64,000 nt of DNA, taken from contig CANMSA010000007.1 in NCBI GenBank assembly GCA_947500385.1, positions 116,929 to 180,928 on the forward strand, in the 5' to 3' direction. This document shows positions 1,044 through 40,657 of this stretch, one piece after another (within the stretch, counting starts at the first letter, position 1; every line of letters begins with the position of its first letter). Below the pieces are notes generated by a model. The model did no database searches. It saw only the letters and a list, made by a program, of their open reading frames with translations, and had not been told where the DNA came from. Made by a program: the position numbers and the translations under genes. Source of the DNA: an uncultured Flavobacteriaceae bacterium (GTDB lineage Bacteria > Bacteroidota > Bacteroidia > Flavobacteriales > Flavobacteriaceae).

Positions 1044-1558
1044 CAAAATATGCTGCACTCTTCGGAGGTTCCGGAAACAATAAACAATCAAAGGAATACC
1101 TAGAGACGATTGAGATTGGTTCTTTTTTAGCCAAACAAGGTTACATCGTAAAGAATGGCGGATATGGTGGTATGATGGAAGCCGTTTCGAAAGGAACCAC
1201 CGAATCGGGAGGCAAAGCGGTTGGGATTACCTGTAAACAAGTAGGTGCTGCTGAGGGAAACAAGTATTTGTCGGAAACGATTGTTACGGATAAGTTGTAT
1301 GAAAGACTGGAATTGTTAATTGAGAACACCACCATTTTTATTGTGCAGCGAGGAGGAATTGGAACCCTTTCGGAGGTGTTTTTAGTGTTGGATATCATCC
1401 GTAAAGAACCTGTAGGGCAAAGACCAAAAATGTACTTTGTCGGTGCTATTTGGCATCATTGTATTGATTCGTTAAAATCAACTTTAATACCTGCGAAAGA
1501 GCATGGTTTGTTCCAGATCGTAAAGGATTTGGCGGAACTACGGGAAAGAATTTTATAG
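1040..1558 (+). CDS. LOG/SLOG family protein
   Basis: ALFGGS, NGGYGGMMEAVSKG and GGIGTLSE motifs. Confidence 0.85.
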   Translation: MTKYAALFGGSGNNKQSKEYLETIEIGSFLAKQGYIVKNGGYGGMMEAVSKGTTESGGKAVGITCKQVGAAEGNKYLSETIVTDKLYERLELLIENTTIFIVQRGGIGTLSEVFLVLDIIRKEPVGQRPKMYFVGAIWHHCIDSLKSTLIPAKEHGLFQIVKDLAELRERIL

Positions 1559-2123: not shown

Positions 2124-2852
2124 TTGAAAAGGACACTAGTAATAGGGGATATTCACGGGGCTTTAAAAGCGCTGAAACAAGTGTTGGAAAGAGCCAAAAT
2201 AACCGGAAATGACAGACTGATATTTCTCGGTGACTATGTGGATGGTTGGAGTGAATCGTCGCAAACCATTCAATATTTAATTGCACTATCTGAAAAACAG
2301 GAATGTATTTTCATTTTAGGGAATCACGATTTATGGTGTAAGCTATGGTTGGAAAAAGGCGCCACAAATCCTATTTGGTTGGCCCATGGAGGTCAAGGAA
2401 CTATAGAAAGCTATATAAAAACAGGCTATCTAACCAGTGAGGTACATAGAGCCTTTTTTAGTCAATTGAAGAATTACTACCTAGATAATGACAACCGTCT
2501 TTTTGTACATGCAGGCTTTACTTCCATGCACGGAGTGGAGAAAGAACACAATGAAAATGATTTCTATTGGGACAGAACACTCTGGGAAGCGGCTAGGATA
2601 TTGAAGCATGTAAGCAAAGAGAAACGTTCGGAAATAGAAACTCGATTAGGTCTTTATAATGAAATCTATATTGGGCATACCCCAACCACAAATTATGAAA
2701 TCATGGAGCCAATAAATGCCATAAACCTTTGGAATGTAGATACGGGGGCGGCGTTTACCGGTAAGTTAACTGTGTTTGATGTAAACACAAAGGACTATTG
2801 GCAAAGTGACAAGGTAATGGAATTATATCCTATAGAAAAAGGGAGGAATTAG
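2124..2852 (+). CDS. Calcineurin-like metallophosphoesterase (PrpA/ApaH-like)
   Basis: GDIHG, GDYVD, GNHD, FVHAG, IGHTP and DTGA motifs; TTG start. Confidence 0.9.
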   Translation: MKRTLVIGDIHGALKALKQVLERAKITGNDRLIFLGDYVDGWSESSQTIQYLIALSEKQECIFILGNHDLWCKLWLEKGATNPIWLAHGGQGTIESYIKTGYLTSEVHRAFFSQLKNYYLDNDNRLFVHAGFTSMHGVEKEHNENDFYWDRTLWEAARILKHVSKEKRSEIETRLGLYNEIYIGHTPTTNYEIMEPINAINLWNVDTGAAFTGKLTVFDVNTKDYWQSDKVMELYPIEKGRN

Positions 2853-3107: not shown

Positions 3108-4814
3108 ATGAAACAGGTATTCACCACACTTTTATGCTGTATAGGTATCGCAGCTTTTTCGCAGGAGGCCCAAAAAAGACAAATTACTCCGGCCCAGATA
3201 GATGCGGTTTTTGCGCAATGGGATACACCGGACAGACCTGGAATAGCCGTAGGGGTGCTCAATGACGGGGAAATTGTATATACCAAGGGCTATGGGCAGG
3301 CCAATCTAGAGCATACCATCGCGATAAGCCCGGAAACGAGGTTCCATATTGGGGACTTGGCCAAGGAATTTACGGTGTATGCGCTGTTGTTGTTGGAACA
3401 AAGGGGGCAACTGTCCCTACAGGATGACGTGCGCAAGCATCTTCCGCAACTAGCGTCTTTAACACGACCGATTACCATTGAACAGTTAATGCATCACACG
3501 GGCGGTTTGAACAATGATGAAGTATCCAAGGCGTTGGCAGGTTGGCAAGCAGGGGATGTCTTTACGAAGGAACAAGCATATACCATGATACGCAACCAAG
3601 CAAAAGCGACCCCTAATAGCGGTAGTGTACAACGCCCCACGAATAGCGGATTTATGATCCTTGAAGACCTGATTGCCAAAGTAGGTGAAACTACCTATGG
3701 CGATTTTATAACGGAGGAGATTTTTAAACCGTTGAAAATGACCAGTTCTGTGTTCGACAGGGAAGGAGCGGTTATCCCGAACAAAGCACAGGGGTATTTT
3801 GCGCAGGGAGATGGTTTTATTCGGTCGGCAATGCATCCTTCCCAAAACATCGTTTCCGATGTGTATACCACGGTAAAAGATATGTGTTTTTGGGCAAAAG
3901 AGCTTGGAGATCCAAAAATCGGAACCGCAGAGATGGTCAAAAAATTCGATGCCTTGTCGGTCGTAGGCGAAGCAGAAGTCGCAGAAACCAATACTGCACT
4001 GTACACGGGCGGTCATCGCTATTGGAATCTTAGGGGTGCTAAAAAGTTGTATCATGTGGAGGTTGCCGGAGGCTATGCAAGCAAATTGATCCGCTATCCG
4101 GACTATGACCTCGCTGTGGTTATTATGGGAAATGACGGGGCTTACAACGGGTACGCAGGTACAGGAGCCAGTGCCCTTTATATTGAGGACTTTTTGGATC
4201 CTATGGTCACCGGGGCGGCGGCAACAACTAAATCCAAAAAATTATCAAAAAAACAATTGGTCGCGTTCGAAGGGGATTATTGGGACGCTGCCAACCATAC
4301 GAGCCGAAAGATCAGTGTTGTGAACGATACGTTGCGATATATGAGGGGCCCGGGAAATGAAAGTGCATTGGTGCCTTTGGCCAAGAATTCCTTTAAGATG
4401 ATAACAAATGCAACGGTCGTTGTAGAGTTCGATTCCGCCACTGACCCAAAGAATATGTCCGTGACCGTAGGGGACGACAAGTTCCATTTGACCGCCTATG
4501 ATTCGAATGCCCCCTGGACGAATAACTTACAGGCCTTTACAGGTACCTATTATGCCGAGGCCTTGGGTGCTTCCTATACGGTTGTTCTAGAGAACGGAAC
4601 CCTCGTACTCTCCCATCCAAGAGTAGGCATGGTTCAACTGGATCCAAGAGTTCCGAATCTATTTGCAGGTAATCGTAGGCATTTTGATTCCCTGGCATTT
4701 GAAAAAGATACCAATGGGACCGTTACCGGCTTTGCCTTGGCCACCTTTGGAGTTGCCGATATTTGGTTTCAAAAGGAAACGCCTTTGGGGAAAAATTTGG
4801 CAAAAACGAGGTAA
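3108..4814 (+). CDS. Secreted serine-hydrolase/beta-lactamase-family protein
   Basis: Signal peptide (MKQVFTTLLCCIG), PGIAVGV, LMHHTGGL and beta-lactamase-fold layout. The SxxK region reads GDLAK, so it may be inactive. An alternative upstream start is at 2991. Confidence 0.75.
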   Translation: MKQVFTTLLCCIGIAAFSQEAQKRQITPAQIDAVFAQWDTPDRPGIAVGVLNDGEIVYTKGYGQANLEHTIAISPETRFHIGDLAKEFTVYALLLLEQRGQLSLQDDVRKHLPQLASLTRPITIEQLMHHTGGLNNDEVSKALAGWQAGDVFTKEQAYTMIRNQAKATPNSGSVQRPTNSGFMILEDLIAKVGETTYGDFITEEIFKPLKMTSSVFDREGAVIPNKAQGYFAQGDGFIRSAMHPSQNIVSDVYTTVKDMCFWAKELGDPKIGTAEMVKKFDALSVVGEAEVAETNTALYTGGHRYWNLRGAKKLYHVEVAGGYASKLIRYPDYDLAVVIMGNDGAYNGYAGTGASALYIEDFLDPMVTGAAATTKSKKLSKKQLVAFEGDYWDAANHTSRKISVVNDTLRYMRGPGNESALVPLAKNSFKMITNATVVVEFDSATDPKNMSVTVGDDKFHLTAYDSNAPWTNNLQAFTGTYYAEALGASYTVVLENGTLVLSHPRVGMVQLDPRVPNLFAGNRRHFDSLAFEKDTNGTVTGFALATFGVADIWFQKETPLGKNLAKTR

Positions 4815-15227: not shown

Positions 15228-15630
15228 TATTCAAAATTTGTGTCCGCCAGTCGATTGACGGACGAACGGGTTAAACTATTTTCATTTATTATTAGTTGGT
15301 TTAATTCTCTTTTAAAAAACCGCAACTACAAATCATCTATTCGATACGGAAATATAGGTTTTCGAAGTTCGTTACGATTTGTTTTTCGGTATGCTTCGGT
15401 CGGTGTTGCCAATACTATGTATTGGTTTTTCCGAGGGAAGGATGTTCAAAAAAGAAATTGCCTTTCACATCAAAAATTCAGTATTTCAAAGTAGTTTCAA
15501 GACTGTTGATTCATCCGAAGAAAAACCAACCGACCTATACCTACGGTTTTTTGCCAATTATACGGAGTGACCGTCCGGTGGTCTTTTTACAAGTGACCTT
15601 CTTGTTCAGAATGGATTTCAAGTCCATATC

Positions 15631-15707
15631 CCACATTATGAGTGTGGTGCTCTACCAACTGAGCTAAGAGATCTAAAAAAAGTGACCTCTGCAGGAGTCG
15701 AACCTGC
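15631..15707 (-). ncRNA. Circularly permuted tRNA(CAT)-like module (T arm > closed acceptor stem > D arm > anticodon arm)
   Basis: Minus strand reads GCAGG-TTCGACT-CCTGC AGAGGTC-A CTTTTTTTA GATCTCT TA GCTC-AGTTGGTA-GAGC A CCACA-CTCATAA-TGTGG. AGAGGTC/GATCTCT form 7 bp, with the 3' half preceding the 5' half. Confidence 0.6.
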
Positions 15708-15710
15708 GCG

Positions 15711-15806
15711 TACTTCTGTTGTTCTAACCAGGCTGAACTACATCCCCATTTTTTGTGAAATGGTTTGTGGGGAAGGAGGGATTCGAACCCCCGACTTACA
15801 GATGTA
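15711..15806 (-). ncRNA. Circularly permuted tRNA-like (YrlA-topology) module lacking an anticodon loop
   Basis: TAC-A-TCTGT AAGTC GGGGG-TTCGAAT-CCCTC CTTCCCC [21-nt loop] GGGGATG TA GTTC-AGCCTGGTTA-GAAC A ACAGA-A-GTA. The acceptor stem has 6/7 pairs and the closing stem is 5+3 bp. Confidence 0.6.
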
Positions 15807-15932
15807 AGACCATTTTTTGGAAAACAGCCGAAACCTTCAAGTCAAGTTGCATATGAAGACCTAATACTTCTCAGTAAAACTTCACACAATAGTGCTATAC
15901 AGAAACACCCAACAAGACCCGCTTGATACTTT

Positions 15933-16082
15933 ATTCCCGCGAAAGCGGGAATCTTTTACGATTTCCCTATGCGAAGCGTAGGCCTCGCCAGGGAATCTTA
16001 TCTTTCAATGAACTTTAATAAACCTCGCAACACACCTTGTTGCTGCGAGGCACCCCCGCAAACCACAGCTTATGTGGTTTGC
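15933..16082. repeat. Cluster of four GC-rich palindromic hairpins (REP-like)
   Basis: attcccgc-gaaa-gcgggaat; ttccct...agggaa; cctcgca...tgcgagg; gcaaaccaca...tgtggtttgc. Confidence 0.55.
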
Positions 16083-16092
16083 ACTATATATT

Positions 16093-16435
16093 AAAAAGCG
16101 TACTGGGAATACCCACGCTTATGGACAAGCTTTCGTAGGAGTACGGCAAAAGCCTTCCCTACTTTTCCACGCGCTTTCCGTTGCTTTGGAAATCGCGTAC
16201 TTGTCCGATGCCAGATACATTGTAACCGTTCGGCGACTTAGACTCGGCCTGCATAGCGGCTTTGGCCGCGCTTTGCAATTACAGGGGTTGGCTCCCCCAC
16301 CGTTCATAGGTGTCCCCTTGCGGGGCGACCTACTAGAATGTTCACCGCATGGTATCGGTTTGCGACCGCTACCACCCCATATCTTGCAATGGGTTTAGGC
16401 AACTACTAGCTGCTACAATGCCCGAAGTCTTTTGC
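16093..16435 (-). ncRNA. Candidate large structured ncRNA B (~340 nt)
   Basis: No credible ORF. Hairpins CCCC-GCAA-GGGG, CGGT-CGCAA-ACCG and GCGGC-CAAA-GCCGC; long-range 7-bp pairs CATTGTA/TACAATG and GGACAAG/CTTGTCC; terminator-like 3' hairpin plus U-run. Confidence 0.6.
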
Positions 16436-16496
16436 TTTTCTGATGCTCCCGAATGAGCTAAGAGACTAATGGGTTGCTCTTGGGAATCGAACCCAA

Positions 16497-16890
16497 ACAA
16501 AAGGTTGGCTTAGAAGAAGGGCTTCGAGAATGGCTCCGTAGATTTTGGCCTACAAAATACCAACCTTCTTCTTGAGTGCCTCCCGGCACACGGTATGTGA
16601 AGCTACCGAACAGTTTCCTATCAGGTACCTCTGGTACTGCACCAAGCTCCGCTGGGTCGGATGCCCCATACGTAACCTAGTACTACAACTTTTCCTCTTG
16701 GTGTCTCCACCGCAAGCCTACACAATGTATCGGCTATAAGTCCCGAGGTTGCCTCAGCGGTCGCCCCCGGCGTATCGTGACTTATGTTGGTTGCTTGCTT
16801 ACCTGCACTACCTTCCGAAGAAGGCAGTCTCCGCCTGCGATGCCCGCATGCAGATTTATCCTTGTTACCAAGTTTATCTGAGGACGATAA
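16497..16890 (-). ncRNA. Candidate large structured ncRNA A (~400 nt)
   Basis: No credible ORF. ACTGCCTTC-TTCG-GAAGGTAGT, GGTG-GAGA-CACC, GTGCC-GGGA-GGCAC, ATAAGTC/GACTTAT and AGAAGAAGG/CCTTCTTCT helices. Confidence 0.6.
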
Positions 16891-16939
16891 GCCGCCCCGT
16901 CATTTACAAGAAATGACGATTTTATTAGAAGAAGCCCAT

Positions 16940-17070
16940 ATGGACTTCTCTATTTCAATGAACGTTCCTCTGAGGCCGACGCGCCATCTGGCCCATTCGC
17001 AAAAAATGTCCACTGGACATTTTCTTAACGCGCTGGCCTACCACAGCTCTTCCCTTTGAGCTAAAGAGGC
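16940..17070 (-). pseudogene. tRNA 5'-half remnant interrupted by a palindromic element
   Basis: GCCTCTT TA GCTC-AAAGGGAA-GAGC followed by the palindrome AAAATGTCCAGTGGACATTTT; no matching 3' acceptor strand. Confidence 0.5.
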
Positions 17071-17172
17071 ATTTTGTTAAAGCCCCACAACACTCCTTTG
17101 TTGTTGTGAGGCACTCCCGCAAACCTCTTTTTGAAAGGCTAGTTTTTAATTACACAACAAAATTGAATCATA

Positions 17173-17195
17173 ACTACGCAATGATTATGCGTAGT
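17173..17195. promoter_or_regulatory. Probable WYL-regulator operator, perfect palindrome ACTACGCA-N7-TGCGTAGT
   Basis: Same arms as at 40597-40619; lies just upstream of a minus-strand CAATTTTG -7-like element. Confidence 0.75.
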
Positions 17196-17219
17196 AAAAA
17201 TGTTTTCAAGACAATTGCT

Positions 17220-17714
17220 TTATACCGCCATGTCCGCACAGGACGAGCTTGCAAACGCAAACGGTTTTGCCTTAAAAACAAATCCCATTCCAAGGATATA
17301 GCCCATCGCTTCTTTTAGTGCCACATTCGATTCAAATTTGGGATCCGTATTAATATCGGCGTGCACTTCAAGCTCGACATTGTATTTGTCCAAAATGTGG
17401 CAGATTGCATAAGCTGTCTCGACGGACATGGCCACTTCTTTTAACATACGCTCTTTGATACTGATGTTAGTAGTGCCCTTTTGATTTTTGATAAACATAA
17501 AACCACCTTTACCTTCCCTAAGTATGACCACTACAGTAGCATAGGCAATGTAAGACTTGTAGGCTTGTGAATCGGACCCTACACAAATCTTAATTCGATA
17601 TCCTGCCTTTTGCTCCCTGACAATGGCCTGCTCAACCAGAGTTGTGATGGGCTGTTCAAAAACCTTCCCGTTAAAATTTCTCCATTTATTCACTGCTATT
17701 TTCATAATTTTCAA
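17220..17714 (-). CDS. Ribonuclease H-like YkuK (DUF458) family protein
   Basis: CVGSDSQ, LKEV, LEVHADIN and KP.AFA.SSCAD motifs; start probably at 17705 or 17714. Confidence 0.85.
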   Translation of the reverse strand: MKIMKIAVNKWRNFNGKVFEQPITTLVEQAIVREQKAGYRIKICVGSDSQAYKSYIAYATVVVILREGKGGFMFIKNQKGTTNISIKERMLKEVAMSVETAYAICHILDKYNVELEVHADINTDPKFESNVALKEAMGYILGMGFVFKAKPFAFASSSCADMAV

Positions 17715-17728
17715 TCATTTTTTTGTTT

Positions 17729-17827
17729 TGGAACATACTGGGATGGAACCCTTCGACTTTGCCCAGGACAGGCCCGGTACCTTTGGTACTTAAAACCAAC
17801 GTGCACACCTACTACACTGCTGTTCCC
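17729..17827 (-). pseudogene. tRNA-Leu(TAA)-like, degenerate, with REP-like insert in T arm
   Basis: GGGAACA...TTGGT-TTTAAGT-ACCAA...ATGTTCC-A; insert ccttcgactttgcccaggacagg on the + strand. Confidence 0.5.
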
Positions 17828-17832
17828 TTTTG

Positions 17833-17905
17833 GGTGACTTGAGAGATTCGAACTCTGTTCTTCGCTTTCACACAGCGATGTTTTACCACATAAACTAAAG
17901 TCACC
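17833..17905 (-). tRNA. tRNA-His(GTG)
   Basis: 8-bp acceptor GGTGACTT/AAGTCACC (G-1), anticodon arm TCGCT-GTGTGAA-AGCGA, T loop TTCGAAT. Confidence 0.75.
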
Positions 17906-17911
17906 ATGTTG

Positions 17912-17982
17912 TTCATCCGATAGGATTCGAACCTATACGACAAGAATCAAAGTCTTGTGTGCTCCCATTACACAACGGATGA
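17912..17982 (-). tRNA. tRNA-Gln(TTG)
   Basis: TCATCCG/CGGATGA; CAAGA-CTTTGAT-TCTTG; ATAGG-TTCGAAT-CCTAT. Confidence 0.85.
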
Positions 17983-18053
17983 ATTTTGTAGGCCTAAAAG
18001 GATTTATTCATGTCACTTCTATTGTTTTTTAACCGTATTCATGAATGCTCCTC

Positions 18054-18167
18054 ATTTGAACCCATACCACAAGGGTCGAAATGCTTTTCAGCATTCACGA
18101 ACTCCTTAATTTAATTAAACAAGGGCGTGAGCTAAACCTTGTATGCTAACCATTACATCACGGGTCT
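18054..18167 (-). pseudogene. tRNA-Arg(TCG) with 52-nt anticodon-loop insert and missing 3' end
   Basis: AGACCCG TG ATGT-AATGGTTA-GCAT A CAAGG TTT[52 nt]TTTCGAC CCTTG TGGT ATGGG TTCAAAT, after which the sequence diverges. Confidence 0.6.
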
Positions 18168-18184
18168 ATTTGCAAGCTTAACAA

Positions 18185-18256
18185 TCCCGAGACTTCGGGA
18201 GAACTCTTGCCTCAAGGGTAGAAACCTTACGTGCTATCCATTACTCTTTAGACTAC
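18185..18256 (-). pseudogene. Degenerate tRNA-Arg(TCT) with T-loop palindrome
   Basis: AAGG-TTTCTAC-CCTT, then GAG-TTC-[TCCCGAAGTCTCGGGA]; the 3' acceptor is lost. Confidence 0.5.
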
Positions 18257-18259
18257 TTT

Positions 18260-18335
18260 TGGTACTCCACCTTGGATTCGAACCAAGACTAAACAGGGCT
18301 TAAACCCGATGCCTCTTCCGTTGGGCTAGTAGAGC
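18260..18335 (-). tRNA. tRNA-Leu(TAA), short variable loop, CCA encoded
   Basis: GCTCTAC/GTGGAGT-A-CCA; loop TTTAAGC; CTTGG-TTCGAAT-CCAAG. Confidence 0.7.
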
Positions 18336-18451
18336 AGTGATAAAAGGAGAGCGATTCCCTTCGACTGTGCTCAGGATACACTTCTCTTCTGTTTTACTTT
18401 TTACAAAATTTCAAAAGAACTTACCGAATACAGCTATTTCCATTTTTTTAG

Positions 18452-18525
18452 TACAGGGAGAGCGATTCGAACGCTCAAATACCTGATTCTAAATCAGGAG
18501 CCTTTGCCATTTTGGCCATCCCTGC
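18452..18525 (-). tRNA. tRNA-Leu(TAG), short variable loop
   Basis: GCAGGGA/TCCCTGT; CCTGA-TTTAGAA-TCAGG; GAGCG-TTCGAAT-CGCTC. Confidence 0.8.
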
Positions 18526-18531
18526 AAATCG

Positions 18532-18615
18532 TTGAGGCATTAGTCCCGACACTTCGGGAGAACCTAAGACTCCCGTGTTAAAAGGACGGTACTCTACCAA
18601 CTGAGTTATACCTCA
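18532..18615 (-). pseudogene. tRNA-Lys(TTT) with 16-nt palindrome in T loop
   Basis: TGAGGTA/TGCCTCA; loop CTTTTAA; TTAGG-TTC-[TCCCGAAGTGTCGGGA]-CTAA. Confidence 0.7.
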
Positions 18616-18620
18616 CTTTG

Positions 18621-18702
18621 TACTCTGTAAGGCCCCGACGCTTCGGGGGAACCCCTGTTTCCTGATAGAAAGTCAGGCGTACTACCATTATACGAACAGA
18701 GC
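18621..18702 (-). pseudogene. tRNA-Glu(TTC) with 16-nt palindrome in T loop
   Basis: GCTCTGT/ACAGAGT; CCTGA-CTTTCTA-TCAGG; AGGGG-TTC-[CCCCGAAGCGTCGGGG]-CCTT. Confidence 0.7.
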
Positions 18703-18716
18703 AAAAGTCTGAGAAG

Positions 18717-18867
18717 TCCCGCATTAGCGGGACGACCTCCCGCTTCCAAAGCGGGCAAACAACTCCCGACACTTAGGTCGGTATCCTGACTTTCGCGATG
18801 GCGAAACGTCAGGACCCGTACCTTCCCGATAGACAGTCGGGTGCTCTAGGCTTTGAACTACGGTACT
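18717..18867 (-). pseudogene. tRNA-Asp(GTC) 5' part followed by a stack of palindromic inserts
   Basis: GTTC-AAAGCCTA-GAGC, CCCGA-CTGTCTA-TCGGG, ACGGG-T, then a ~50-nt double hairpin and two more palindromes; no 3' acceptor. Confidence 0.6.
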
Positions 18868-18870
18868 TTG

Positions 18871-18954
18871 TGGAAGTAGTAGTCCCGACACTTCGGGAGA
18901 ACCCTTAATTCCACATAGAAAGTGTGGCGTCTTAGCCGTTTGACCAACGTAGCC
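18871..18954 (-). pseudogene. Chimeric tRNA-Glu(TTC) with T-loop palindrome
   Basis: GGCTACG...CCACA-CTTTCTA-TGTGG AAGGG-TTC-[TCCCGAAGTGTCGGGA]-CTAC TACTTCC-A; the 3' strand does not pair with the 5' acceptor. Confidence 0.6.
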
Positions 18955-18959
18955 TTTTG

Positions 18960-19031
18960 CGGTTCATACGAGAATCGAACTCGTATCTCCCGAGAGACAG
19001 TCGGGAAGGATTGCCATTACCCCAATGAACC
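18960..19031 (-). tRNA. tRNA-Asp(GTC)
   Basis: GGTTCAT/ATGAACC-G; CCCGA-CTGTCTC-TCGGG; ACGAG-TTCGATT-CTCGT. Confidence 0.85.
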
Positions 19032-19039
19032 CAATTTTG

Positions 19040-19111
19040 TACACCTACTAGGATTCGAACCCGGACTGAAAGAGTAGAAGTCTTTAGTGCTATCCCTTAC
19101 ACCATAGATGC
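19040..19111 (-). tRNA. tRNA-Arg(TCT)
   Basis: GCATCTA/TAGGTGT; AAAGA-CTTCTAC-TCTTT; T loop TTCGAAT with one T-stem mismatch. Confidence 0.8.
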
Positions 19112-19117
19112 TTCTTG

Positions 19118-19199
19118 TGGGAATGATAGGATTCGAACCTATTAAGCCAAAGCACCAGTTTTACAGACTGGCTCAACCCTCCATCGTTGACGCATTCCC
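19118..19199 (-). tRNA. tRNA-Tyr(GTA)
   Basis: GGGAATG/CATTCCC; CCAGT-CTGTAAA-ACTGG; longer variable region; ATAGG-TTCGAAT-CCTAT. Confidence 0.85.
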
Positions 19200-19206
19200 T
19201 TTTTTG

Positions 19207-19279
19207 AGACAAGGACAGGATTCGAACCTGTAAAAAACAGATTTGCAGTCTGCCACCTTAACCATTCAGCCACCTTGTC
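19207..19279 (-). tRNA. tRNA-Cys(GCA)
   Basis: GACAAGG/CCTTGTC with U73; GCAGA-CTGCAAA-TCTGT; ACAGG-TTCGAAT-CCTGT. Confidence 0.85.
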
Positions 19280-19283
19280 TATT

Positions 19284-19434
19284 TGGCGGAGTTGAGCCCC
19301 AAGGCTTCGAGGGAATACCGACGCTTGGGTCGGTATCCTGACTTTCACGAACGTGAAACGTCAGGACCTCCACCGCCTCTGGTGCGGCCTTGTTTAGCAG
19401 ACAAGTGTAACAAACCAGTATTTACCTACTCTCC
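19284..19434 (-). pseudogene. tRNA-Ser(GCT) with composite hairpin insert in T loop
   Basis: GGAGAGT...CTTGT-CTGCTAA-ACAAG, long variable arm GCCGC/GCGGT, GGAGG-T-[~70-nt insert]-...ACTCC-G-CCA. Confidence 0.65.
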
Positions 19435-19443
19435 ATTTTTTTG

Positions 19444-19517
19444 TCTGAGAGACAGGATTCGAACCTGCAACCTCCTGCATCCAAGGCAGGTAAACCAAAC
19501 CATCGTTATCCTCTCAG
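19444..19517 (-). tRNA. tRNA-Pro(TGG)
   Basis: CTGAGAG/CTCTCAG; CCTGC-CTTGGAT-GCAGG; GCAGG-TTCGAAT-CCTGT. Confidence 0.85.
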
Positions 19518-19522
19518 TGTTG

Positions 19523-19610
19523 CGGAAGGAGTGGGGGTCGAACCCACACGAGGCGTTAACTCCTAACTGTTTTCAAAACAGCGACCACCACCAAATTGGT
19601 TTGCCCTTCC
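19523..19610 (-). tRNA. tRNA-Ser(TGA)
   Basis: GGAAGGG/TCCTTCC-G; GCTGT-TTTGAAA-ACAGT; long variable arm; GTGGG-TTCGACC-CCCAC. Confidence 0.85.
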
Positions 19611-19616
19611 ATCTTG

Positions 19617-19691
19617 TTGACCCGATGGGAATCGAACCCATGACCTCGACCTTAAAAGGGCCTTGCTCTAACCTGGCTGAGCTACGAATCA
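19617..19691 (-). tRNA. tRNA-Lys(TTT)
   Basis: TGATTCG/CGGGTCA; GCTC-AGCCAGGTTA-GAGC; loop CTTTTAA; ATGGG-TTCGATT-CCCAT. Confidence 0.85.
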
Positions 19692-19740
19692 ATATTTAAA
19701 TTTTACCCAATCCCTCTCTGAGGGTTTCAATGAACATCAT

Positions 19741-19774
19741 AAAAAAAGCGCCTCCTGTTCTGGGAGACGCTTTT
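19741..19774 (-). terminator. Attenuator terminator 1 (upstream of tRNA array)
   Basis: GCGTCTCC-CAGAACA-GGAGGCGC followed by T7. Confidence 0.75.
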
Positions 19775-19796
19775 GTATTGCTAGGCTTTATTTGAG

Positions 19797-19979
19797 TTAA
19801 ACCCATATATACTTCTCCCGTTTATTATTGTACAGTCTTTCTCCATAAAAATATAAACTCGATTTCGGTGAGTTTATCGGTGTGAGTGTATGTACCATTT
19901 CTTTTCTCATTTTTTCAAATTCGTAAGAACCCCAACAACGTTGATTTTTTTTCCTATGTGTATGTCGTTGTGTTTTCAT
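19797..19979 (-). CDS. Putative 60-aa leader peptide (MKTQRHTHRKK...KREKYIWV)
   Basis: Starts about 20 nt after a CATCTTTG element (20000-20007), ends just before terminator 1, and contains GGGAGA complementary to the terminator 5' arm. Confidence 0.5.
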   Translation of the reverse strand: MKTQRHTHRKKNQRCWGSYEFEKMRKEMVHTLTPINSPKSSLYFYGERLYNNKREKYIWV

Positions 19980-20220
19980 TTGTCTTTTTTTCGACAGGGC
20001 AAAGATGAAAACGATTTTTAAATTATACAAGAAAAAAATTAATTTAATTTATTGATAATCAAATAGTTAAATTAAAATATAGACAATAGAATCCCTGTCC
20101 GTCATAGTGCGGATTTTGAACATTTATTACAACTGTCTGTCTACCAATTGTTTTCTGTTTCAACTATGTTATTTTATTTGTTTGCTACTTTTCACATTTT
20201 ACTTTAAAAAATTCCACAAA

Positions 20221-20471: not shown

Positions 20472-20975
20472 TTAGGGGATATCCGATTCTAACTTCCTTT
20501 TGATTCTACTTTCCTCCGCCTCAATAAAGAATATCTCGTCGTTGACATAGGTATTCTTTTTTGCTTCGCTCAAGTGTTTCAGTGACAGCTTGTAATTTTC
20601 AGTTGTTTCCAAAGCAAACGCCGAAACACAATATAAACTTGCTTTATCAATACCCTTAATGGTAAAACCAAAATTGATCAGTTTAAAGGCTCTCTCGATT
20701 TCATCTGCCCAAATTAAGTAGGTAGCATACATAGGATATACCTCTAAATAGTCGGTGCTGATAGCGATTACCCTATCAAAACAGTCAAAAGCTTTGGCAT
20801 ATTGATTCAAGTTTTTTGCGTATACCTCTCCAAGCATACATAGTACCGCACAGTAATTTTCGTTGTAAGAAAGGGCGTAATTTAGCGATTCACACACGTC
20901 AATCCAATCAACGCAAGGGCCATTCATCGCTTCTTTGGCCTTTAAGTAATAGGTGTCTGCTATCGTTAGTTCCAT
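20472..20975 (-). CDS. TPR-like protein (paralog 2)
   Basis: LTIADTYYLKAK...LNYALSY; helical TPR-like pattern; close paralog of 21556-22086. Confidence 0.8.
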   Translation of the reverse strand: MELTIADTYYLKAKEAMNGPCVDWIDVCESLNYALSYNENYCAVLCMLGEVYAKNLNQYAKAFDCFDRVIAISTDYLEVYPMYATYLIWADEIERAFKLINFGFTIKGIDKASLYCVSAFALETTENYKLSLKHLSEAKKNTYVNDEIFFIEAEESRIKRKLESDIP

Positions 20976-21555: not shown

Positions 21556-22086
21556 TTATTTTCGAAGTTTCTTTTTTTGTCTTTTGGAAGCAGGCTTCTT
21601 ATCCAATTTCAACTTTTTTTTGATTCGCTTTTCCTCTCCTTCGATAAAAGAAAAGTAGTCTTCGTTAAAAGAGTACTTTTTGGACTTCTTCAGATATTTC
21701 AGAGCAATTTGATAGTGCTCTTGGGTTTCCGCGGCATAGGCGGAAAGCCACAACAGACTGCCTTTTGATACGCCCTTTAGGGTCAATGCAAAAGCGATTA
21801 GATTTGTCGCTCTTTCAATTTCATCTGCCCAGATCAAGTATAAGGTGTACATGGGATAAACGTCCAAGTAATAGTTGTCTAAGGCGATTACTTTATCAAA
21901 ACATTCGAAAGCTTTCTCATATTGATGTAAGTTTCTGGCATACACGCTACCAAGAAGGCAAAGTGCCGCACAATGATTTTCGTCATAGGACAGGGCATAG
22001 TTTAACGATTCGCATACTTCGTCCCAGTCATAGCCGCGCGCGGCCTTGGCCTTTAAGTAGTAGGTGTCTGCTATGGTTAGTCCCAT
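21556..22086 (-). CDS. TPR-like protein (paralog 1), coupled to prfH
   Basis: MGLTIADTYYLKAK; TPR-like helices; Lys-rich tail; overlaps the prfH stop. Confidence 0.8.
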   Translation of the reverse strand: MGLTIADTYYLKAKAARGYDWDEVCESLNYALSYDENHCAALCLLGSVYARNLHQYEKAFECFDKVIALDNYYLDVYPMYTLYLIWADEIERATNLIAFALTLKGVSKGSLLWLSAYAAETQEHYQIALKYLKKSKKYSFNEDYFSFIEGEEKRIKKKLKLDKKPASKRQKKKLRK

Positions 22087-22769
22087 TGTTGTTTTCTTAG
22101 TTGGTTTTTTAGTTGTTGCCGTTTTGGCCTGTATTTTTTAAGTGTTTTTTGAGGTTTAAAGTCGGTACCTTTAAAAATACGAACAGGATTTCCACGCTGT
22201 AAATCCAAATGATTTTCCCATTGATCGGTCATCCTGCTTTTTAATTGCGCTAGGTTGGCTTCCTTCACCTTTTCCTTCAACCGAGCGATAGCCAATTTTT
22301 TATTTTGATGTTGAGAACGACTGTCCATCACTACTACCTGAACGCCCGTTGGGGTATGAATGGCGCGAACAGCGGAGTTTACTTTGTTCACATGCTGTCC
22401 TCCTGGACCCTTGCTCCGCATGGTCTGAAATGAGATTTCTTTTTCAGTTACCTCCATGGTCTGCGTCATTTTTAATTCGAAAGCGCCGATGAACCAGTTT
22501 TTCCGTTTATGATGTTTTCGAAATCTCGAGGTGCCGATCCATTGAATGGTACCCAGCCAAGTTGCTAAAAAAGTAGCTAGGTCCTTCCCTTTTAAGCAAA
22601 TTGTAACCGATTGTACAGTGCCGTTTTGGGTGCCTTTTTCCTGATGTAGGATGCTATGCTGAATACCTGCTTTTTTGGTTTCCTGCAAGAATAGTTTAAG
22701 TACTTGGGCAACCACCCAACCACATTCCGAGGGCCCTCTACCAGCTGTTATCTGTAGTATTTTTTCCAT
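22077..22769 (-). CDS. prfH: Peptide chain release factor H
   Basis: LQITAGRGPSEC, WIGTS, RKNWFIG and GPGGQHVNKVNSAVRA..PTG (GGQ); adjacent to rtcB. Confidence 0.93.
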   Translation of the reverse strand: MEKILQITAGRGPSECGWVVAQVLKLFLQETKKAGIQHSILHQEKGTQNGTVQSVTICLKGKDLATFLATWLGTIQWIGTSRFRKHHKRKNWFIGAFELKMTQTMEVTEKEISFQTMRSKGPGGQHVNKVNSAVRAIHTPTGVQVVVMDSRSQHQNKKLAIARLKEKVKEANLAQLKSRMTDQWENHLDLQRGNPVRIFKGTDFKPQKTLKKYRPKRQQLKNQLRKQQWD

Positions 22770-22859: not shown

Positions 22860-24251
22860 TCACTTATTCATTCGTACTATTTTAGGCGTAAAGGTTCCGA
22901 GTACCTCTACCAACTCTTGTTGATTCGCCATGACCTTCTCAATGTTTTTGTACGCCATGGGCGCTTCGTCGATACCTCCACCAATAAGGGTGACCTCGTG
23001 TTTTTGCAACTGCTTCTTGATCTCACTTTTGGTAAAAGTCTCTTTGCACTTTCGTCTTGAAAAAAGACGCCCGGCGCCATGGGAGGCAGAATTTAAACTT
23101 GTTGTATTTCCCAAACCCCTTACGACATAACCCGGCGCGGTCATGGAGCCGGGAATAATTCCCAGTTCACCTTTTGCCGCCGGAGTCGCTCCTTTTCGAT
23201 GCACGATACACTCCTTGCCGTTCAACTCCTGTTTCCAGGCCAAGTTGTGATGGTTCGCTATTTTGAACAATGGCTTTACACCTAAAAGTTTGGCCAATCT
23301 TGTGTGAATATTATCATGACAAGCGGTTGCATAATCTCCCGCTAAGTTCATGGCCAACCAATATTCCTGTCCGTCATGGGTATCCAAATCGAGCCAAGCA
23401 AGATGCTGTACATGTTTGGGCAGTGGGCATTGCTTTGTTGCCAAATAAGTATAGTGTTTCGCTATTTTGGCGCCCAGACCTCTAGAGCCACTATGCGACA
23501 AAATCCCAAGGTATTCCCCTGGTTTTAAACCCCATTCGTTCTGAAGGTCGGTAATGGAAACACTACCGAATTCCACAAAGTGATTGCCTCCACCGGAAGT
23601 ACCCAATTGTTTGTAGGCGGTATCCTTTAGACTTTTAAGTCGAGGGATGTTTTTAAATTCGTCCCGTTCAAAGATTTCATGATCATGCTTTATGGAATGC
23701 GTCTCGCGCATACCGAACTTGGTATGTTCGGAAAGCATGTTTGCCAATTGATGCTTCTTTCCTTTAAGGTAGGAAACCGCAATTGGATAAACGGTCAAAC
23801 ACATACTACAGCCAATATCGACTCCGACCCCATAGGGGATGACCGCATTATGGGTCGCCAACACCCCTCCGATCGGTAGGCCATACCCGCTATGTGCATC
23901 GGGCATCAATGCCCCCGCCACAGAAACCGGTAGTTTTAAAGCATCGTACAATTGATACTTCGCTTGCTGTTCAATTTCATTTTCACCATATATCTGAAAA
24001 GGGGCACGCACTTTTTTGAGTTCCTGTTTTTTAACGATGACCGGGTCTAACAAACTTTCGGCAATCTTTCCCCATACCCCATCACCTTGATAGTCTTCTG
24101 GGTGCAACAATACTTTTTTAGCTACGGTCAATACCTGCTCCTTTTTCATTCGCTTGTGGTATCGGTTGATCTGCCCCAAGGTAATGTTGATACTGTTGTT
24201 CTTTGGAAAACCTAATTTGATCAGGTCCTTTCCGCTTAATTTCTTTCCCAT
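22860..24251 (-). CDS. rtcB: RNA ligase RtcB (PrfH-linked type)
   Basis: PDAHSGYGLPIGG, GVDIGC, GTSGGGNHF, HSGSRG, HHN, HRKGAT, PGSM, SHGAGR and DEAP motifs. Confidence 0.95.
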   Translation of the reverse strand: MGKKLSGKDLIKLGFPKNNSINITLGQINRYHKRMKKEQVLTVAKKVLLHPEDYQGDGVWGKIAESLLDPVIVKKQELKKVRAPFQIYGENEIEQQAKYQLYDALKLPVSVAGALMPDAHSGYGLPIGGVLATHNAVIPYGVGVDIGCSMCLTVYPIAVSYLKGKKHQLANMLSEHTKFGMRETHSIKHDHEIFERDEFKNIPRLKSLKDTAYKQLGTSGGGNHFVEFGSVSITDLQNEWGLKPGEYLGILSHSGSRGLGAKIAKHYTYLATKQCPLPKHVQHLAWLDLDTHDGQEYWLAMNLAGDYATACHDNIHTRLAKLLGVKPLFKIANHHNLAWKQELNGKECIVHRKGATPAAKGELGIIPGSMTAPGYVVRGLGNTTSLNSASHGAGRLFSRRKCKETFTKSEIKKQLQKHEVTLIGGGIDEAPMAYKNIEKVMANQQELVEVLGTFTPKIVRMNK

Positions 24252-36074: not shown

Positions 36075-37187
36075 ATGAAAACAACTTCAACGAGCATCCT
36101 ATTACTGTATTTGTCCTTAGTAATAATGGGCTGTAAAAAAGGGTCTTCTGTTATGGGGAATCATGCAATCGTTCCCGAGGAGATTGTGCAACTCGATGAC
36201 ATCAGGATCCATGATCCTAAAACTGTTGAAAATCTTAGTCTTTTTGTACTTACAGGCAAGGAAAGAGTGCTGGGAAAAAGATACCACACCTTGGCAGAAG
36301 CGATGGATGCCAAGGCCGTGACGGTTAGGGAAACCGGTGCTGTTAACGAACTCTCGATCGATAATAATGGTACGGACTACATATTCATCCATTCTGGGGA
36401 TATTGTGAAGGGAGGAAAACAAGATCGAACCATTAGTCATGATATTATAGTCGCGCCCAATACCAAAGACATGCCGTTGGCAAGCTTTTGTGTAGAGCAG
36501 GGTAGGTGGCAACAACGCGCCGAGGAAGAGGTAGTCGCCTTTAGTTCGAATACCAAAATGCTCTCGTCAAGAGACCTAAAATTGGCTGCCAAACATGAAA
36601 GCGATCAAGGAAAAGTATGGAGCAAGGTTTCGGAACAAAAGGCTTACTTGAATGAAAAACTATCGAAAAGAAAAGGCTATGCCGTAGACGTTGCAGCAGC
36701 GCAGTCTGCCAGCAGCCTGCAATTGGCTTTGGAGAACGAAGAACTTGAAAAGAGCAAGGATTCTATTTACGAACTCGTAAAGGATTTGATCGACACCCCG
36801 GATGCGATCGGTTACGCCTATGCCATTAACGGGGAAATTTATGGAGTAGACGTATACAACAATCGGCAGCTTTTTGCCGATTTATGGGATAGAATAGTGG
36901 AATCGCTGATCGTAGAGGCCATTAGTAAAGAGGGGGAAGAAAAAAGCGCGGATAAAACAAAAAAGGAAGTACTTGCCTATATGAAGTCTGTAAAGGAAAC
37001 GGATAAAAAGACAACAAAAAAACTTAATACGATTACCAATTTTAAAACCATTGAAAACGAAAAGGGCAGCATTGTATTCTCCACCGAAGATTTGGAAGAA
37101 AAAAAATGGATTCACAAAAGCTATATGCAAATAGATACCGCTGCAGTTGCCCAAAATGAAAGCCCTTTGTTGAACGCACGCCATTAA
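36075..37187 (+). CDS. Lipoprotein with ARPP-1 (DUF6569)-like domain
   Basis: Lipobox IMGC; V.ETG.VNEL.I.N...GDIVKGGKQDRTI...FCVEQGRW...Q..VW motifs. Confidence 0.75.
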   Translation: MKTTSTSILLLYLSLVIMGCKKGSSVMGNHAIVPEEIVQLDDIRIHDPKTVENLSLFVLTGKERVLGKRYHTLAEAMDAKAVTVRETGAVNELSIDNNGTDYIFIHSGDIVKGGKQDRTISHDIIVAPNTKDMPLASFCVEQGRWQQRAEEEVVAFSSNTKMLSSRDLKLAAKHESDQGKVWSKVSEQKAYLNEKLSKRKGYAVDVAAAQSASSLQLALENEELEKSKDSIYELVKDLIDTPDAIGYAYAINGEIYGVDVYNNRQLFADLWDRIVESLIVEAISKEGEEKSADKTKKEVLAYMKSVKETDKKTTKKLNTITNFKTIENEKGSIVFSTEDLEEKKWIHKSYMQIDTAAVAQNESPLLNARH

Positions 37188-37227
37188 TATAATAGCGCCA
37201 GTTAGATTTGATAACCAGCGCTGTTGC

Positions 37228-38706
<1,479 letters not shown>

Positions 38707-38735
38707 TCATGATTCCGGTACAAACTTCCTACTTA

Positions 38736-38758
38736 TTCGCGCAATGATTTTGCGTAGT
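38736..38758. promoter_or_regulatory. Probable WYL operator, imperfect (TTCGCGCA-N7-TGCGTAGT)
   Basis: One arm is identical to the 17173 and 40597 sites; followed on the minus strand by GAAGTTTG, upstream of the second rtcB. Confidence 0.65.
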
Positions 38759-38763
38759 TGGGT

Positions 38764-39828
38764 TTATTGCTGTTTTTCGTTATAGAATTCTTGCCTAACA
38801 CTCGCCAAGAGACTATTTGCAAGCGTTAAGTTAGGGCGATCCTTCAAGTGAGACTTTCGGAATATAATTTCTAACTCGGCTCTTAGTAATTCAGCTTTTT
38901 CAACCAATTCTTCATATTCCAATTCCGCATTTTTTACGGCCAGTAAAAAATCCCTATCCGATCTACGAACTATTATCTTGCTTTGTTCTCCTATTTCCTT
39001 TGCCATATGCAACAAGCGAAACGTATGCATCATGTTTTTGGCATCGTAGTTCTTACTGTGCGAAACATTACTTTTATAGCGTTCATTATTTCTTTTTTCA
39101 ACCCAAGACCAATATTCCTTATACTTTTTGCAATACGATGAGTATCCATCTACGTTGAAATACAGCAGTGCAATGGGTACCTCTGATTTGGGTATGGAAC
39201 TGAGACATACCTCATTTGCATGCGCCCTAGCGATTCCGTTGTACCCCATGGTAGTATCGTAGAAAAGATTGTAGCAATCTTTCATATGACTGATTTTTGC
39301 CAATCCGCAATGGTTGATTTCTAAACCCTCTTGATGTAAAAATGTTTTTAACGGCATGGCGCGTTTTTCTGTTCTTACAAAACAAAAATCGACTACAGAC
39401 CTTCGCTCTTTTTCAACAGGGTTCACGATTTTCTTTTTGAGCCCTCTCGCCTTTTTAATTTGCGTAAAAGCGTAGTTCGCAAAGGTGTCCTTACACAATT
39501 TCGAAAGAAAGTATTCGGATTTCAATTTGTCAAAGAGAGGATGTTTCTGCAGAACACAATCCTCAGGAATGCTTAATAGTTCAAGGATATTGGGATTGTT
39601 CTTTGCTAGTAACTCCACGAACTTTTTAAGCTCATAGTATACGATGTCGTTGGTCTCATTGTTTATTTGACCTACATATTCCAATGAATAATACTTTTCC
39701 TTTGGCAGTACAAAAACTCCACGAATATCGGTATCAGAGGAAGCGGTAGCAAGGCCATATGCTCTGCTACCGCTAATACATTCAAATAGGATGTTTCCCG
39801 AAGCCTTTAGCTCTTTGATTGTTTTCAT
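38764..39828 (-). CDS. Pol-beta-superfamily nucleotidyltransferase
   Basis: GSRAYGLA...SDTDIRGVF, NNPN.LELL and YDAKNMMH..RLL motifs. Confidence 0.88.
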   Translation of the reverse strand: MKTIKELKASGNILFECISGSRAYGLATASSDTDIRGVFVLPKEKYYSLEYVGQINNETNDIVYYELKKFVELLAKNNPNILELLSIPEDCVLQKHPLFDKLKSEYFLSKLCKDTFANYAFTQIKKARGLKKKIVNPVEKERRSVVDFCFVRTEKRAMPLKTFLHQEGLEINHCGLAKISHMKDCYNLFYDTTMGYNGIARAHANEVCLSSIPKSEVPIALLYFNVDGYSSYCKKYKEYWSWVEKRNNERYKSNVSHSKNYDAKNMMHTFRLLHMAKEIGEQSKIIVRRSDRDFLLAVKNAELEYEELVEKAELLRAELEIIFRKSHLKDRPNLTLANSLLASVRQEFYNEKQQ

Positions 39829-40565: not shown

Positions 40566-40596
40566 TTCTAAATTTATAATACAAACTTGAAAACGA

Positions 40597-40619
40597 ACTA
40601 CGCACTTATTTTGCGTAGT
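40597..40619. promoter_or_regulatory. Probable WYL operator ACTACGCA-N7-TGCGTAGT
   Basis: Perfect palindrome in the 92-bp gap between the divergent WYL gene and the NTase-NTase-rtcB operon. Confidence 0.8.
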
Positions 40620-40657
40620 AAAATACTATTTTTATTTTCACCGTAAATACTTTTAAA

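Follow-up and report, generated by a model that had tools for sequence, protein, structure and literature searches.

What kind of RNA, if any, lies between a tRNA array and a slipin gene in the genome of an uncultured Flavobacteriaceae bacterium? The locus is part of a stretch of 64,000 nucleotides (nt) from GenBank assembly GCA_947500385.1 (contig CANMSA010000007.1, positions 116,929 to 180,928 of the forward strand), which as a whole is called the window here and whose first letter is position 1. An interpretation made from the letters alone, the sequence-only reading, had proposed for positions 16093-16890 a large ornate noncoding RNA, either of a new class or a diverged relative of GOLLD, acting in an RNA-repair locus under probable control of a WYL regulator. 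Our analysis indicates that positions ~16926 to ~16093 (minus strand) very probably encode a full-length GOLLD RNA of a divergent subclade from marine Flavobacteriaceae, which is situated in an island of tRNA-array and RNA-repair genes and has a putative operator-promoter of its own. The locus would add no RNA class and be a member of a known family. GOLLD reportedly goes back to Weinberg et al. 2009.

Assignment to the GOLLD family

The comparison is based on an alignment of eight sequences, namely the window and seven homologs, with a mean identity of 78% and spanning window positions ~16926 to ~16093. One homolog (L003) was found by a genome scan using the neighbouring YkuK-like protein, and six further ones by a metagenome scan using a conserved 20-mer. 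Scanned against Rfam in E-value mode, the window matched the GOLLD family (RF02032) at 16098-16572 (minus strand) over model positions 1-416 of 416, with 124.2 bits and an E-value of 2.1e-33. This is a strong match to a known family, sub-threshold in bits and overwhelming in E-value, and it essentially removes the novelty for which the Rfam-wide check had been proposed. Six relatives (the scan left out L003) scored 111-147 bits over the full model, with E-values of 1e-28 to 1e-39. The gathering cut-off, set at 150 bits as an operational limit for annotation and not as a structural feature, is reached neither within this clade nor by four sister variants with 95-130 bits (L087:5376-5829, L088:6226-6684, L093:9797-10245 and L091:256-664). 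The sister variants carry the exact 20-mer of the window in their 5′ motif and are surrounded by dense tRNA arrays, and tmRNA-like matches were detected on the L087 and L093 contigs. Since the RF02032 score lies just under 150 bits, default annotation misses GOLLD here; a scan at gathering thresholds yielded only tRNAs in the window and nothing at 16093-16926. GOLLD homologs have been gathered at E < 1e-5 in a published study (PMC12286853), a limit that the window match passes.

RF02032 models only the conserved 3′ domain, and therefore a separate test was needed for the 5′ part. The 5′ motif of the published env-38 GOLLD consists of GUCGUCAAAUAAA, a GAAA-capped hairpin and then GGAUAAAG (Supplementary Table 4, PMC12286853), and its equivalent in the window is GUCCUCAGAUAAA, a GUAA-capped hairpin and then GGAUAAAU. 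A degenerate pattern of this motif retrieved 19 IMG/VR contigs. Eleven of the 17 that were scanned at the gathering cut-off contained GOLLD at 153-323 bits, with the 5′ motif ~280-400 nt upstream of the 3′ domain, and L114, one of the two remaining contigs, gave 252 bits with RF02032. A covariance model (R1) built solely from ten IMG/VR phage GOLLD 5′ ends matched the window over its full length at 16784-16896, with 50.1 bits and an E-value of 5.7e-11. The seven full-length relatives scored 48-52 bits and the partial homolog L084 50.9 bits; loci with the search pattern or the 20-mer and without GOLLD (mostly unchecked at sub-threshold level) scored at most 20 bits, and R1 had no match at E < 0.29 over 1.28 Mb of other Bacteroidota loci. 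The R1 test covers the first ~113 nt of the 5′ domain, which continues for another ~210 nt. Because RF02032 matches the 3′ domain and R1 the 5′ end, both domains are assigned to GOLLD: the canonical 5′-terminal subdomain and the conserved 3′ domain belong to this family. The fallback of the sequence-only reading, a diverged GOLLD-like RNA, was thus the appropriate one, and its preferred new class is not upheld. The parts of the RNA are as follows.

16898-16918, minus strand: clade-specific 5′ hairpin (GUCAUUU/AAAUGAC) of 8 pairs, compensatory in 5; canonical phage GOLLDs are without this hairpin
16574-16897, minus strand: GOLLD 5′ domain (R1 50.1 bits; helices 2-15 covary)
16896-16784 (~113 nt), minus strand: canonical 5′-terminal subdomain with closing helix, GUCnUCArAUAAA, GNRA hairpin, GGAUAAA and two hairpins
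16098-16572, minus strand: conserved GOLLD 3′ domain (RF02032 124.2 bits; helices 16-36 covary)
16093-16120, minus strand: terminal hairpin with loop GGGUAUUCCCAGU, then UUUUU; RF02032 positions 397-416; likely 3′ end or terminator

The window RNA resembles known GOLLDs in its size of ~0.8 kb, in its separate 5′ and 3′ domains, of which the latter aligns over the whole model, and in the motifs of the 5′ end, where the closing helix is followed by GUCnUCArAUAAA, a GNRA hairpin, GGAUAAA and two hairpins. The terminal loop GUAUUCnCA, the variable interior linker able to carry a tRNA and the adjoining tRNA array are further common traits. Unlike in env-38 and phage GOLLDs, where roughly 400 nt precede the RF02032 match, this stretch comprises ~325 nt here. 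The window RNA also differs from canonical GOLLD by the extra 5′ hairpin, the loss of one RF02032 hairpin, a permuted unit in the linker and an expansion, found throughout its clade, of the region where RF02032 has its large internal insertions. The GOLLD nanocage structure was solved in 2025, and cryo-electron microscopy of other GOLLDs revealed monomers assembling into RNA-only nanocages of 10 to 14 subunits with the linker pointing inward (PMC12286853, PMC12990946). Assembly into a nanocage would be expected for the window variant by analogy with the family, in which variation of peripheral helices alters cage stoichiometry (PMC12990946).

The link to GOLLD became visible only with structure-aware models. 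No match was found by blastn in distant mode against 50,697 phage genomes, and clade-specific 20-24-mers had 0 matches in IMG/VR, as had a 24-mer of env-38. Inside 16093-16926 no Rfam match at E <= 10 was found for ROOL, RNase P, tmRNA, group I or II introns or rRNA. ROOL (RF03087) is likewise a large ornate, cage-forming RNA near tRNA islands, but is unrelated in sequence and fold, and no Rfam ROOL match at E <= 10 occurred within 15300-20100. GOLLD thus appears to be under-annotated in Bacteroidota, where a marine Flavobacteriaceae clade and its sister variants lie just below the Rfam cut-off.

Extent, coding status and conservation of the fold

The conserved structured RNA occupies window positions ~16093-16926 on the minus strand (~800-830 nt). 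The sequence-only reading had described ~800 nt of raised GC content without a credible open reading frame (ORF), which agrees with our data: GC content is 0.49-0.53 over 16050-16950 versus 0.33-0.40 in the flanking genes, and the overlapping ORFs of 55-108 amino acids (aa) on both strands are all interrupted by stops or frameshifts at homologous loci. As the overlapping ORFs are broken in homologs, the region is considered non-coding, and a protein-coding reading of 16093-16926 was ruled out on the same grounds. Of the proposed extent 16093-16890 the region as such was confirmed, but the element continues to ~16926, slightly past the original upper boundary, and thereby includes a covarying 5′ hairpin at 16918-16898. 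At the other end, homology among the aligned relatives stops at the terminal hairpin and U-run (~16093).

The minus strand folds with a minimum free energy of -307 kcal/mol (z = -3.98 relative to 20 dinucleotide shuffles). For the eight sequences RNAalifold predicted a consensus of 230 pairs with compensatory changes in 84. In the lightly curated structure of 229 pairs, standard pairs fill 97.6% of the 1822 pair cells, and both sides change in 88 pairs, compared to 35.4 +/- 3.8 in shuffles (0 of 500 reach 88). When partners were slid by 1-3 columns as a control, only 10-14 pairs with two-sided changes were obtained. Across these loci, 150 double-sided changes were counted in total. Most of helices 16-36 in the 3′ domain have double-sided changes and are paired in 92-100% of cells, the exception being helix 20, an isolated single pair with 75% of cells paired, and helices 2-15 of the 5′ domain have covariation support as well. 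The fold is kept by compensatory evolution and is under strong structural selection. The collection of homologs and covariation test proposed at the outset therefore spoke for a minus-strand noncoding RNA that is large and ornate and has two domains, and all helices that the sequence-only reading had named were recovered in the consensus at their original coordinates, with the exception of a pseudoknot. The recovered elements of the RNAalifold consensus of the eight homologs are listed below.

16828-16820/16815-16807, minus strand: 9-bp stem with UUCG loop
16785-16779/16742-16736, minus strand: long-range helix
16711-16700, minus strand: GAGA hairpin
16591-16574, minus strand: GGGA hairpin
16572-16564/16520-16512, minus strand: helix
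16420-16412/16226-16218, minus strand: helix
16206-16199/16130-16123, minus strand: helix
16120-16096, minus strand: terminal hairpin, then U-run

The pseudoknot had been proposed between 16429-35 and 16146-52. Its two halves are perfect 7-mer complements in the window (GCAAAAG/CUUUUGC), but the 3′ partner is not conserved among the homologs in the alignment, and the pseudoknot was rejected.

RNAalifold also joins the extreme 5′ end at 16893-16897 (GGGCG) to the 3′ end at 16096-16100 (CGCUU), in competition with the terminal hairpin. This closing helix (16897-16893/16100-16096), which shows one-sided changes only, was set aside for the terminal hairpin of RF02032 (helix 36), which is preferred because it shows G-C to A-U compensation, found in four of the eight sequences.

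Metatranscriptome contigs 85-99% alike cover 16203-16908 and the downstream tRNA-like pieces, whereas 15906-16107 and 16916-17218 are left uncovered by them. Relatives of the window RNA accordingly appear to be transcribed with termini near the conserved boundaries.

A permuted tRNA-like unit in the interior linker

The sequence-only reading had placed a tRNA-like remnant between the two domains. The remnant is real insofar as it includes a T-arm and a D-arm, and can now be described more precisely as a permuted unit in the GOLLD linker.

16422-16511, minus strand: variable linker with a degenerate, circularly permuted tRNA-like unit (from the alignment)

The unit consists, in this order, of a T-arm (16496-16480), a short closed acceptor-like segment and a D-arm (16458-16445), and is without an anticodon arm. 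Its position corresponds to a long linker that is unpaired in the Rfam model. Cryo-electron microscopy shows this linker to be disordered and turned towards the inside of the cage, and in some GOLLDs it houses tRNAs (PMC12286853, PMC12990946). At 16422-16511 neither ARAGORN nor RF00005 called a tRNA, that is, no canonical cloverleaf was found. The acceptor of the window unit has 3 of 7 pairs in the canonical register and 5 of 7 in a shifted one, and throughout the window clade a self-closing acceptor-like segment of 20-23 nt lies between T-arm and D-arm. Four relatives, with three different sequences, have 6 of 7 acceptor pairs in the canonical tRNA register, and L092 has all seven with a shift by one position.

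In two relatives, L081 (~1215-1320, minus strand) and L082 (~2390-2500, minus strand), the linker unit retains an anticodon arm. ARAGORN made no call in the native order and, after un-permutation in silico, reported two tRNAs with stop-codon-reading anticodons, tRNA(UCA) in L081 and tRNA(UUA) in L082. The linkers of L096 and L091 do not contain any tRNA-like unit. L096 has lost it altogether and the window copy is a decaying version. Ordinary tRNAs occupy the same linker slot in the sister variants L087, L088 and L093 (95-103 bits): Ile-GAU, one with an 8-nt anticodon loop (in L088, where ARAGORN gives ‘ttag’) and Lys-UUU. The permuted unit would most simply have arisen when an embedded tRNA was duplicated in tandem and the outer halves were then lost. 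Circularly permuted tRNA genes and two-piece tmRNA genes, which are processed to functional molecules, have the same order of T-arm and 3′ acceptor before 5′ acceptor and D-arm with a short closing loop; unlike these, the window unit is degenerate and embedded in a larger RNA. tRNAs embedded in a GOLLD linker can therefore be circularly permuted, which bears on the question whether the cage interior presents tRNA-shaped cargo.

Operator-like palindrome and putative promoter

A palindrome next to the WYL gene and a -7-like element upstream of the RNA, both of which the sequence-only reading had pointed out, were found again. The elements in question are the following.

17173-17195, minus strand: operator-like palindrome ACTACGCA-N7-TGCGTAGT, ~25 nt from the stop codon of the YkuK-like gene; the conserved RNA lies ~250 nt downstream of the palindrome
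17147-17165, minus strand: putative promoter core with -7-like box CAATTTTG at 17165-17158 and TAATTA at 17152-17147 (~10 sites alike)
16927-17146, minus strand: possible leader with a repeat-unit hairpin at 17125-17085 and element GCCTCTTTAGCTCAAAGGGAAGAGCTGTGG at 17072-17043
40658-41671, plus strand: regulator with WYL and WCX domains (Pfam WYL 2.6e-10, WCX 3.8e-14), candidate repressor

The palindrome ACTACGCA-N7-TGCGTAGT occurs twice in the window, versus 0.01 copies expected by chance. Its second copy (40597-40619) lies in the divergent promoter between the WYL/WCX gene and a RlaP-RlaP-RtcB operon, so that the same operator is found at the promoter of the regulator itself and upstream of GOLLD. 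WYL/WCX orthologs are encoded directly beside the tRNA-array island in L001, L004, L005 and L008, and related palindromes are located upstream of GOLLD in L003, L089, L096 and L082. In relatives the palindrome also precedes tRNA arrays, TPR genes and RtcB genes, and at L001 it sits at the WYL promoter. A TAnnTTTG-like box, which we take to be the -7 promoter element of Bacteroidota sigma-A, stands 9-10 nt behind the palindrome at ~10 sites in related loci, and TAATTA usually comes another 4 nt further on. The operator would thus overlie the promoter spacer, as expected for a repressor, and WYL control of GOLLD appears plausible from this shared sequence.

Across genera, (T)ACGCA-N7-TGCGTA with TAnnTTTG and usually TAATTA was seen in L001, L003-L008, L011, L013, L082, L086, L089 and L096. 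The units marked in this way are the divergent WYL/RtcB promoter, TPR genes, tRNA arrays, the unit after YkuK and RtcB-RlaP. The arrangement looks like a regulon-wide operator-promoter design, as far as sequence patterns can indicate.

The leader element GCCTCTTTAGCTCAAAGGGAAGAGCTGTGG recurs in the leader of L089 (~3975-4010), but downstream of GOLLD in L003 and L082. In the form (G)CCTCTTTAGCTyAAArGGAAGAGCTGTGG it resembles a tRNA 5′ half, and at 17043-17072 it had no match to an Rfam family.

Gene neighbourhood and distribution

The location inside an RNA-repair and tRNA-array locus that the sequence-only reading had assumed was corroborated by genes for RtcB and PrfH and by an array of 11 tRNAs. 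In the order of transcription, the same strand encodes RtcB, PrfH, two TPR-like paralogs, the tRNA array, the YkuK-like protein, GOLLD, tRNA-like pieces and slipin.

22860-24251, minus strand: RtcB (Pfam/NCBIfam)
22077-22769, minus strand: PrfH (TIGR03072, 239 bits)
21556-22086 and 20472-20975, minus strand: two paralogous proteins of ~170 aa with a weak TPR signal only and no curated family
19691-17832, minus strand: tRNA array with 11 tRNAs (ARAGORN)
17714-17220, minus strand: YkuK-like protein with RNase H fold (RNaseH_like)
15830-15603, minus strand: degenerate tRNA-like pieces downstream of GOLLD
15227-14127, minus strand: slipin/SPFH protein (Band_7)

WYL/WCX and RlaP proteins were also identified in the window by Pfam and NCBIfam, and the surroundings further include TonB-dependent receptors, ribosomal protein L21 and cargo of the type IX secretion system (T9SS). 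A scan of 50 proteins from all over the 64 kb turned up no integrase and no phage structural or lysis gene. The YkuK-like protein is 79-85% identical to its best relatives (Dokdonia, Psychroserpens-like), and these relatives together with T9SS sorting domains underlie the assignment to Flavobacteriaceae. tRNA array and YkuK form a conserved module in related Flavobacteriaceae, with which a WYL regulator, a second RtcB, RlaP nucleotidyltransferases and slipin cluster. GOLLD follows this module and precedes slipin in L082, L089 and L003; elsewhere it is found before slipin and RtcB (L086) or directly before RtcB (L092). tRNA clusters adjoin GOLLD in the window, L082 and L089.

The TPR-like paralogs are kept between PrfH or WYL and the tRNA array in L003, L004, L005, L008 and L086, often preceded by the palindrome.

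Weighing of alternative explanations

Several points weigh against a host-encoded GOLLD under WYL control. The score of 124.2 bits is below the Rfam gathering cut-off of 150 for RF02032, and one RF02032 hairpin is missing from the window RNA, which is kept in L096. An nhmmer profile of the clade, searched against env-38 and 2000 shuffles, gave no significant match; since this sequence-only profile fails, the relationship between the clade and known GOLLDs would be ancient and carried by structure. Besides the window, only 1 of 14 islands from species-representative Flavobacteriaceae contains GOLLD, and its absence from 13 of 14 makes it an optional, dispensable module of the island. The transcript evidence consists of assembled contigs of relatives, and that the WYL protein binds the palindrome is a prediction from the shared operator sequence. 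Competing explanations fare worse. That the RNA belongs to a new class of large ornate noncoding RNAs unrelated to described families, the main proposal of the sequence-only reading, is extremely unlikely. It would fit the empty results of the default Rfam scan, of blastn against phage genomes and of nhmmer against env-38, but not the match to full-length RF02032 (E 2e-33, and E 1e-28 to 1e-39 in the tested relatives), the recognition of the 5′ end by R1, which was built only from bona fide GOLLDs, or the shared architecture of two domains, an interior linker with tRNA and an adjoining tRNA array. There is next to no chance that the structure is a relic in decayed tRNA-array, repeat or mobile DNA. 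Direct repeats flank the region, degenerate tRNA-like pieces lie around it and the embedded unit is itself degenerate, but nearly all pair cells (97.6% of 1822) are kept over eight loci that are 78% identical and have 150 double-sided changes, the boundaries are conserved and related sequences occur in RNA libraries.

An ordinary GOLLD borne by a phage or prophage, and hence cargo rather than part of a host stress regulon, appears quite unlikely at this locus. Described GOLLDs are mostly found in phages and prophages (PMC12286853), the closest relatives of the 5′ motif outside the clade are IMG/VR contigs with tRNA arrays and tmRNA, and the sporadic occurrence of GOLLD among islands suggests horizontal gain. 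The window, however, is a chromosomal Flavobacteriaceae island with a WYL-type operator, in which no phage or prophage location was recognised: structural, integrase and lysis genes were not found among the 50 proteins scanned in the 64 kb, and T9SS cargo, L21 and TonB receptors are encoded nearby. Moreover, the slot between tRNA array/YkuK and slipin is kept in several genera, clade-specific 20-24-mers had no IMG/VR match, and GOLLD outside prophages has already been documented, a phage location being frequent but not obligatory (PMC5737381). It is very unlikely that the transcript is mainly the precursor of a tRNA-like product, either the embedded unit or the flanking pieces, with the GOLLD body as a mere processing scaffold. 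tRNAs or tRNA-like units do occur in the linkers of L081, L082, L087, L088 and L093, and two RtcB ligases are encoded nearby; on the other hand, the acceptor stem of the window unit is poor and its anticodon arm is missing, L096 and L091 are without a unit, and ~700 nt of scaffold are under strong structural selection. A divergent GOLLD RNA of the host island is therefore retained as the explanation of the locus.

Proposed role and comparison with known systems

The gene context points to a possible part of this GOLLD in the RNA-damage response. The GOLLD gene would be an accessory module of a chromosomal island comprising RtcB-PrfH, tRNA array, YkuK-like protein, GOLLD and slipin. It might be transcribed from its own promoter at ~17150, overlapped by the operator palindrome common to the WYL/WCX promoter, and could be switched on together with spare tRNAs and with RNA ligases and ribosome-repair enzymes upon damage to RNA or translation by toxins, phage or antibiotics. 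A precedent is known from Anabaena, where the repressor TrcR keeps a long tRNA array silent along with rtcB and a slipin gene, and impaired translation lifts the silencing (PMC8421152, PMC10272220). The window has tRNA array, RtcB, slipin and a common operator like the Anabaena trn L-array/TrcR regulon (PMC8421152, PMC10272220). TrcR, however, is a ribbon-helix-helix protein acting on direct repeats, whereas the window would implicate a WYL/WCX protein and a palindrome, and GOLLD is unreported in the TrcR system. The combination of an optional chromosomal GOLLD with spare tRNAs, RtcB-PrfH ribosome repair and slipin predicts its co-induction with the tRNA array on damage, and the gene context may offer a regulatory handle on GOLLD function.

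As to what the RNA would do, the cage might store, shield or display tRNA-shaped modules, or bind tRNAs or ribosomal particles, in which case it would form a protected reserve or else distract tRNA-directed nucleases as a decoy; this is a guess and somewhat unlikely to be right. A more specific and unlikely scenario is a host-encoded, WYL-repressed component of the translational-stress response and RNA repair in which the permuted interior tRNA, complete in L081 and L082, would be excised and rejoined by RtcB and its acceptor loop opened by RNase P/Z, making GOLLD a vehicle that stores and releases a latent (suppressor) tRNA or an anticodon-nuclease decoy. Among known systems, tRNA arrays of Mycobacterium, in the account of Morgado et al. 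2020 given in PMC12990946, include GOLLD with an embedded tRNA-Phe in J13/15. According to that account, these resemble the window in the location inside a bacterial tRNA array and in a tRNA element in a single-stranded linker, but belong to another phylum and carry a plain tRNA-Phe instead of a degenerate unit of T-arm, closed acceptor and D-arm.

Further observations

Direct repeats flank the GOLLD gene (15992-16064 and 16942-17125). They consist of a hairpin unit, GTTTGCGGGrGTGCCTCrCArCAACAArG...GTGTTGyGrGG, and a CATTGAAA segment, and may be processing or terminator modules or scars of cassette insertion.

Downstream of GOLLD, 15603-15830 (minus strand) is a mosaic of tRNA-like pieces in which a T-arm with CTTCCCC is followed by GGGGATG and a D-arm, again in permuted order. 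Next comes a weak tRNA (32 bits) whose anticodon is CAU. Sub-threshold matches to YrlA (cut-off 69 bits) were obtained with 27-30 bits in the mosaic and with 42-45 bits at the corresponding place in L089 (5384-5451) and L082 (1419-1528).

Y RNAs had been brought up by the sequence-only reading as a parallel. YrlA is an RNA of ~110 nt that requires Rsr and is encoded in Salmonella in the arrangement rsr-yrlBA-rtcBA. The likeness lies in a tRNA-mimicking noncoding RNA encoded beside RtcB, and the parallel is weak: the larger ORFs of the window yielded no Rsr/TROVE gene, and the YrlA matches reach 27-45 bits compared to the cut-off of 69. A Y RNA reading of 16093-16926 was rejected, as these matches are located downstream of GOLLD and none within it.

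The array region 17729-19000 contains several weak tRNA-like matches (17-26 bits) beyond the 11 tRNAs called by ARAGORN, and four copies of a hairpin repeat, CCCGACACTTCGGGAGAACC, are located between tRNAs at 18172-18903. Two further RNA-repair or NAD-linked clusters are encoded in the window. The first (34-2852) comprises genes for a nucleoside deoxyribosyltransferase-like protein, NADAR, SLOG/LOG, the RNA 2′-phosphotransferase Tpt1/KptA and a metallophosphoesterase, and the second (36075-41671) comprises ARPP-1, the second RtcB, two RlaP proteins and WYL/WCX.

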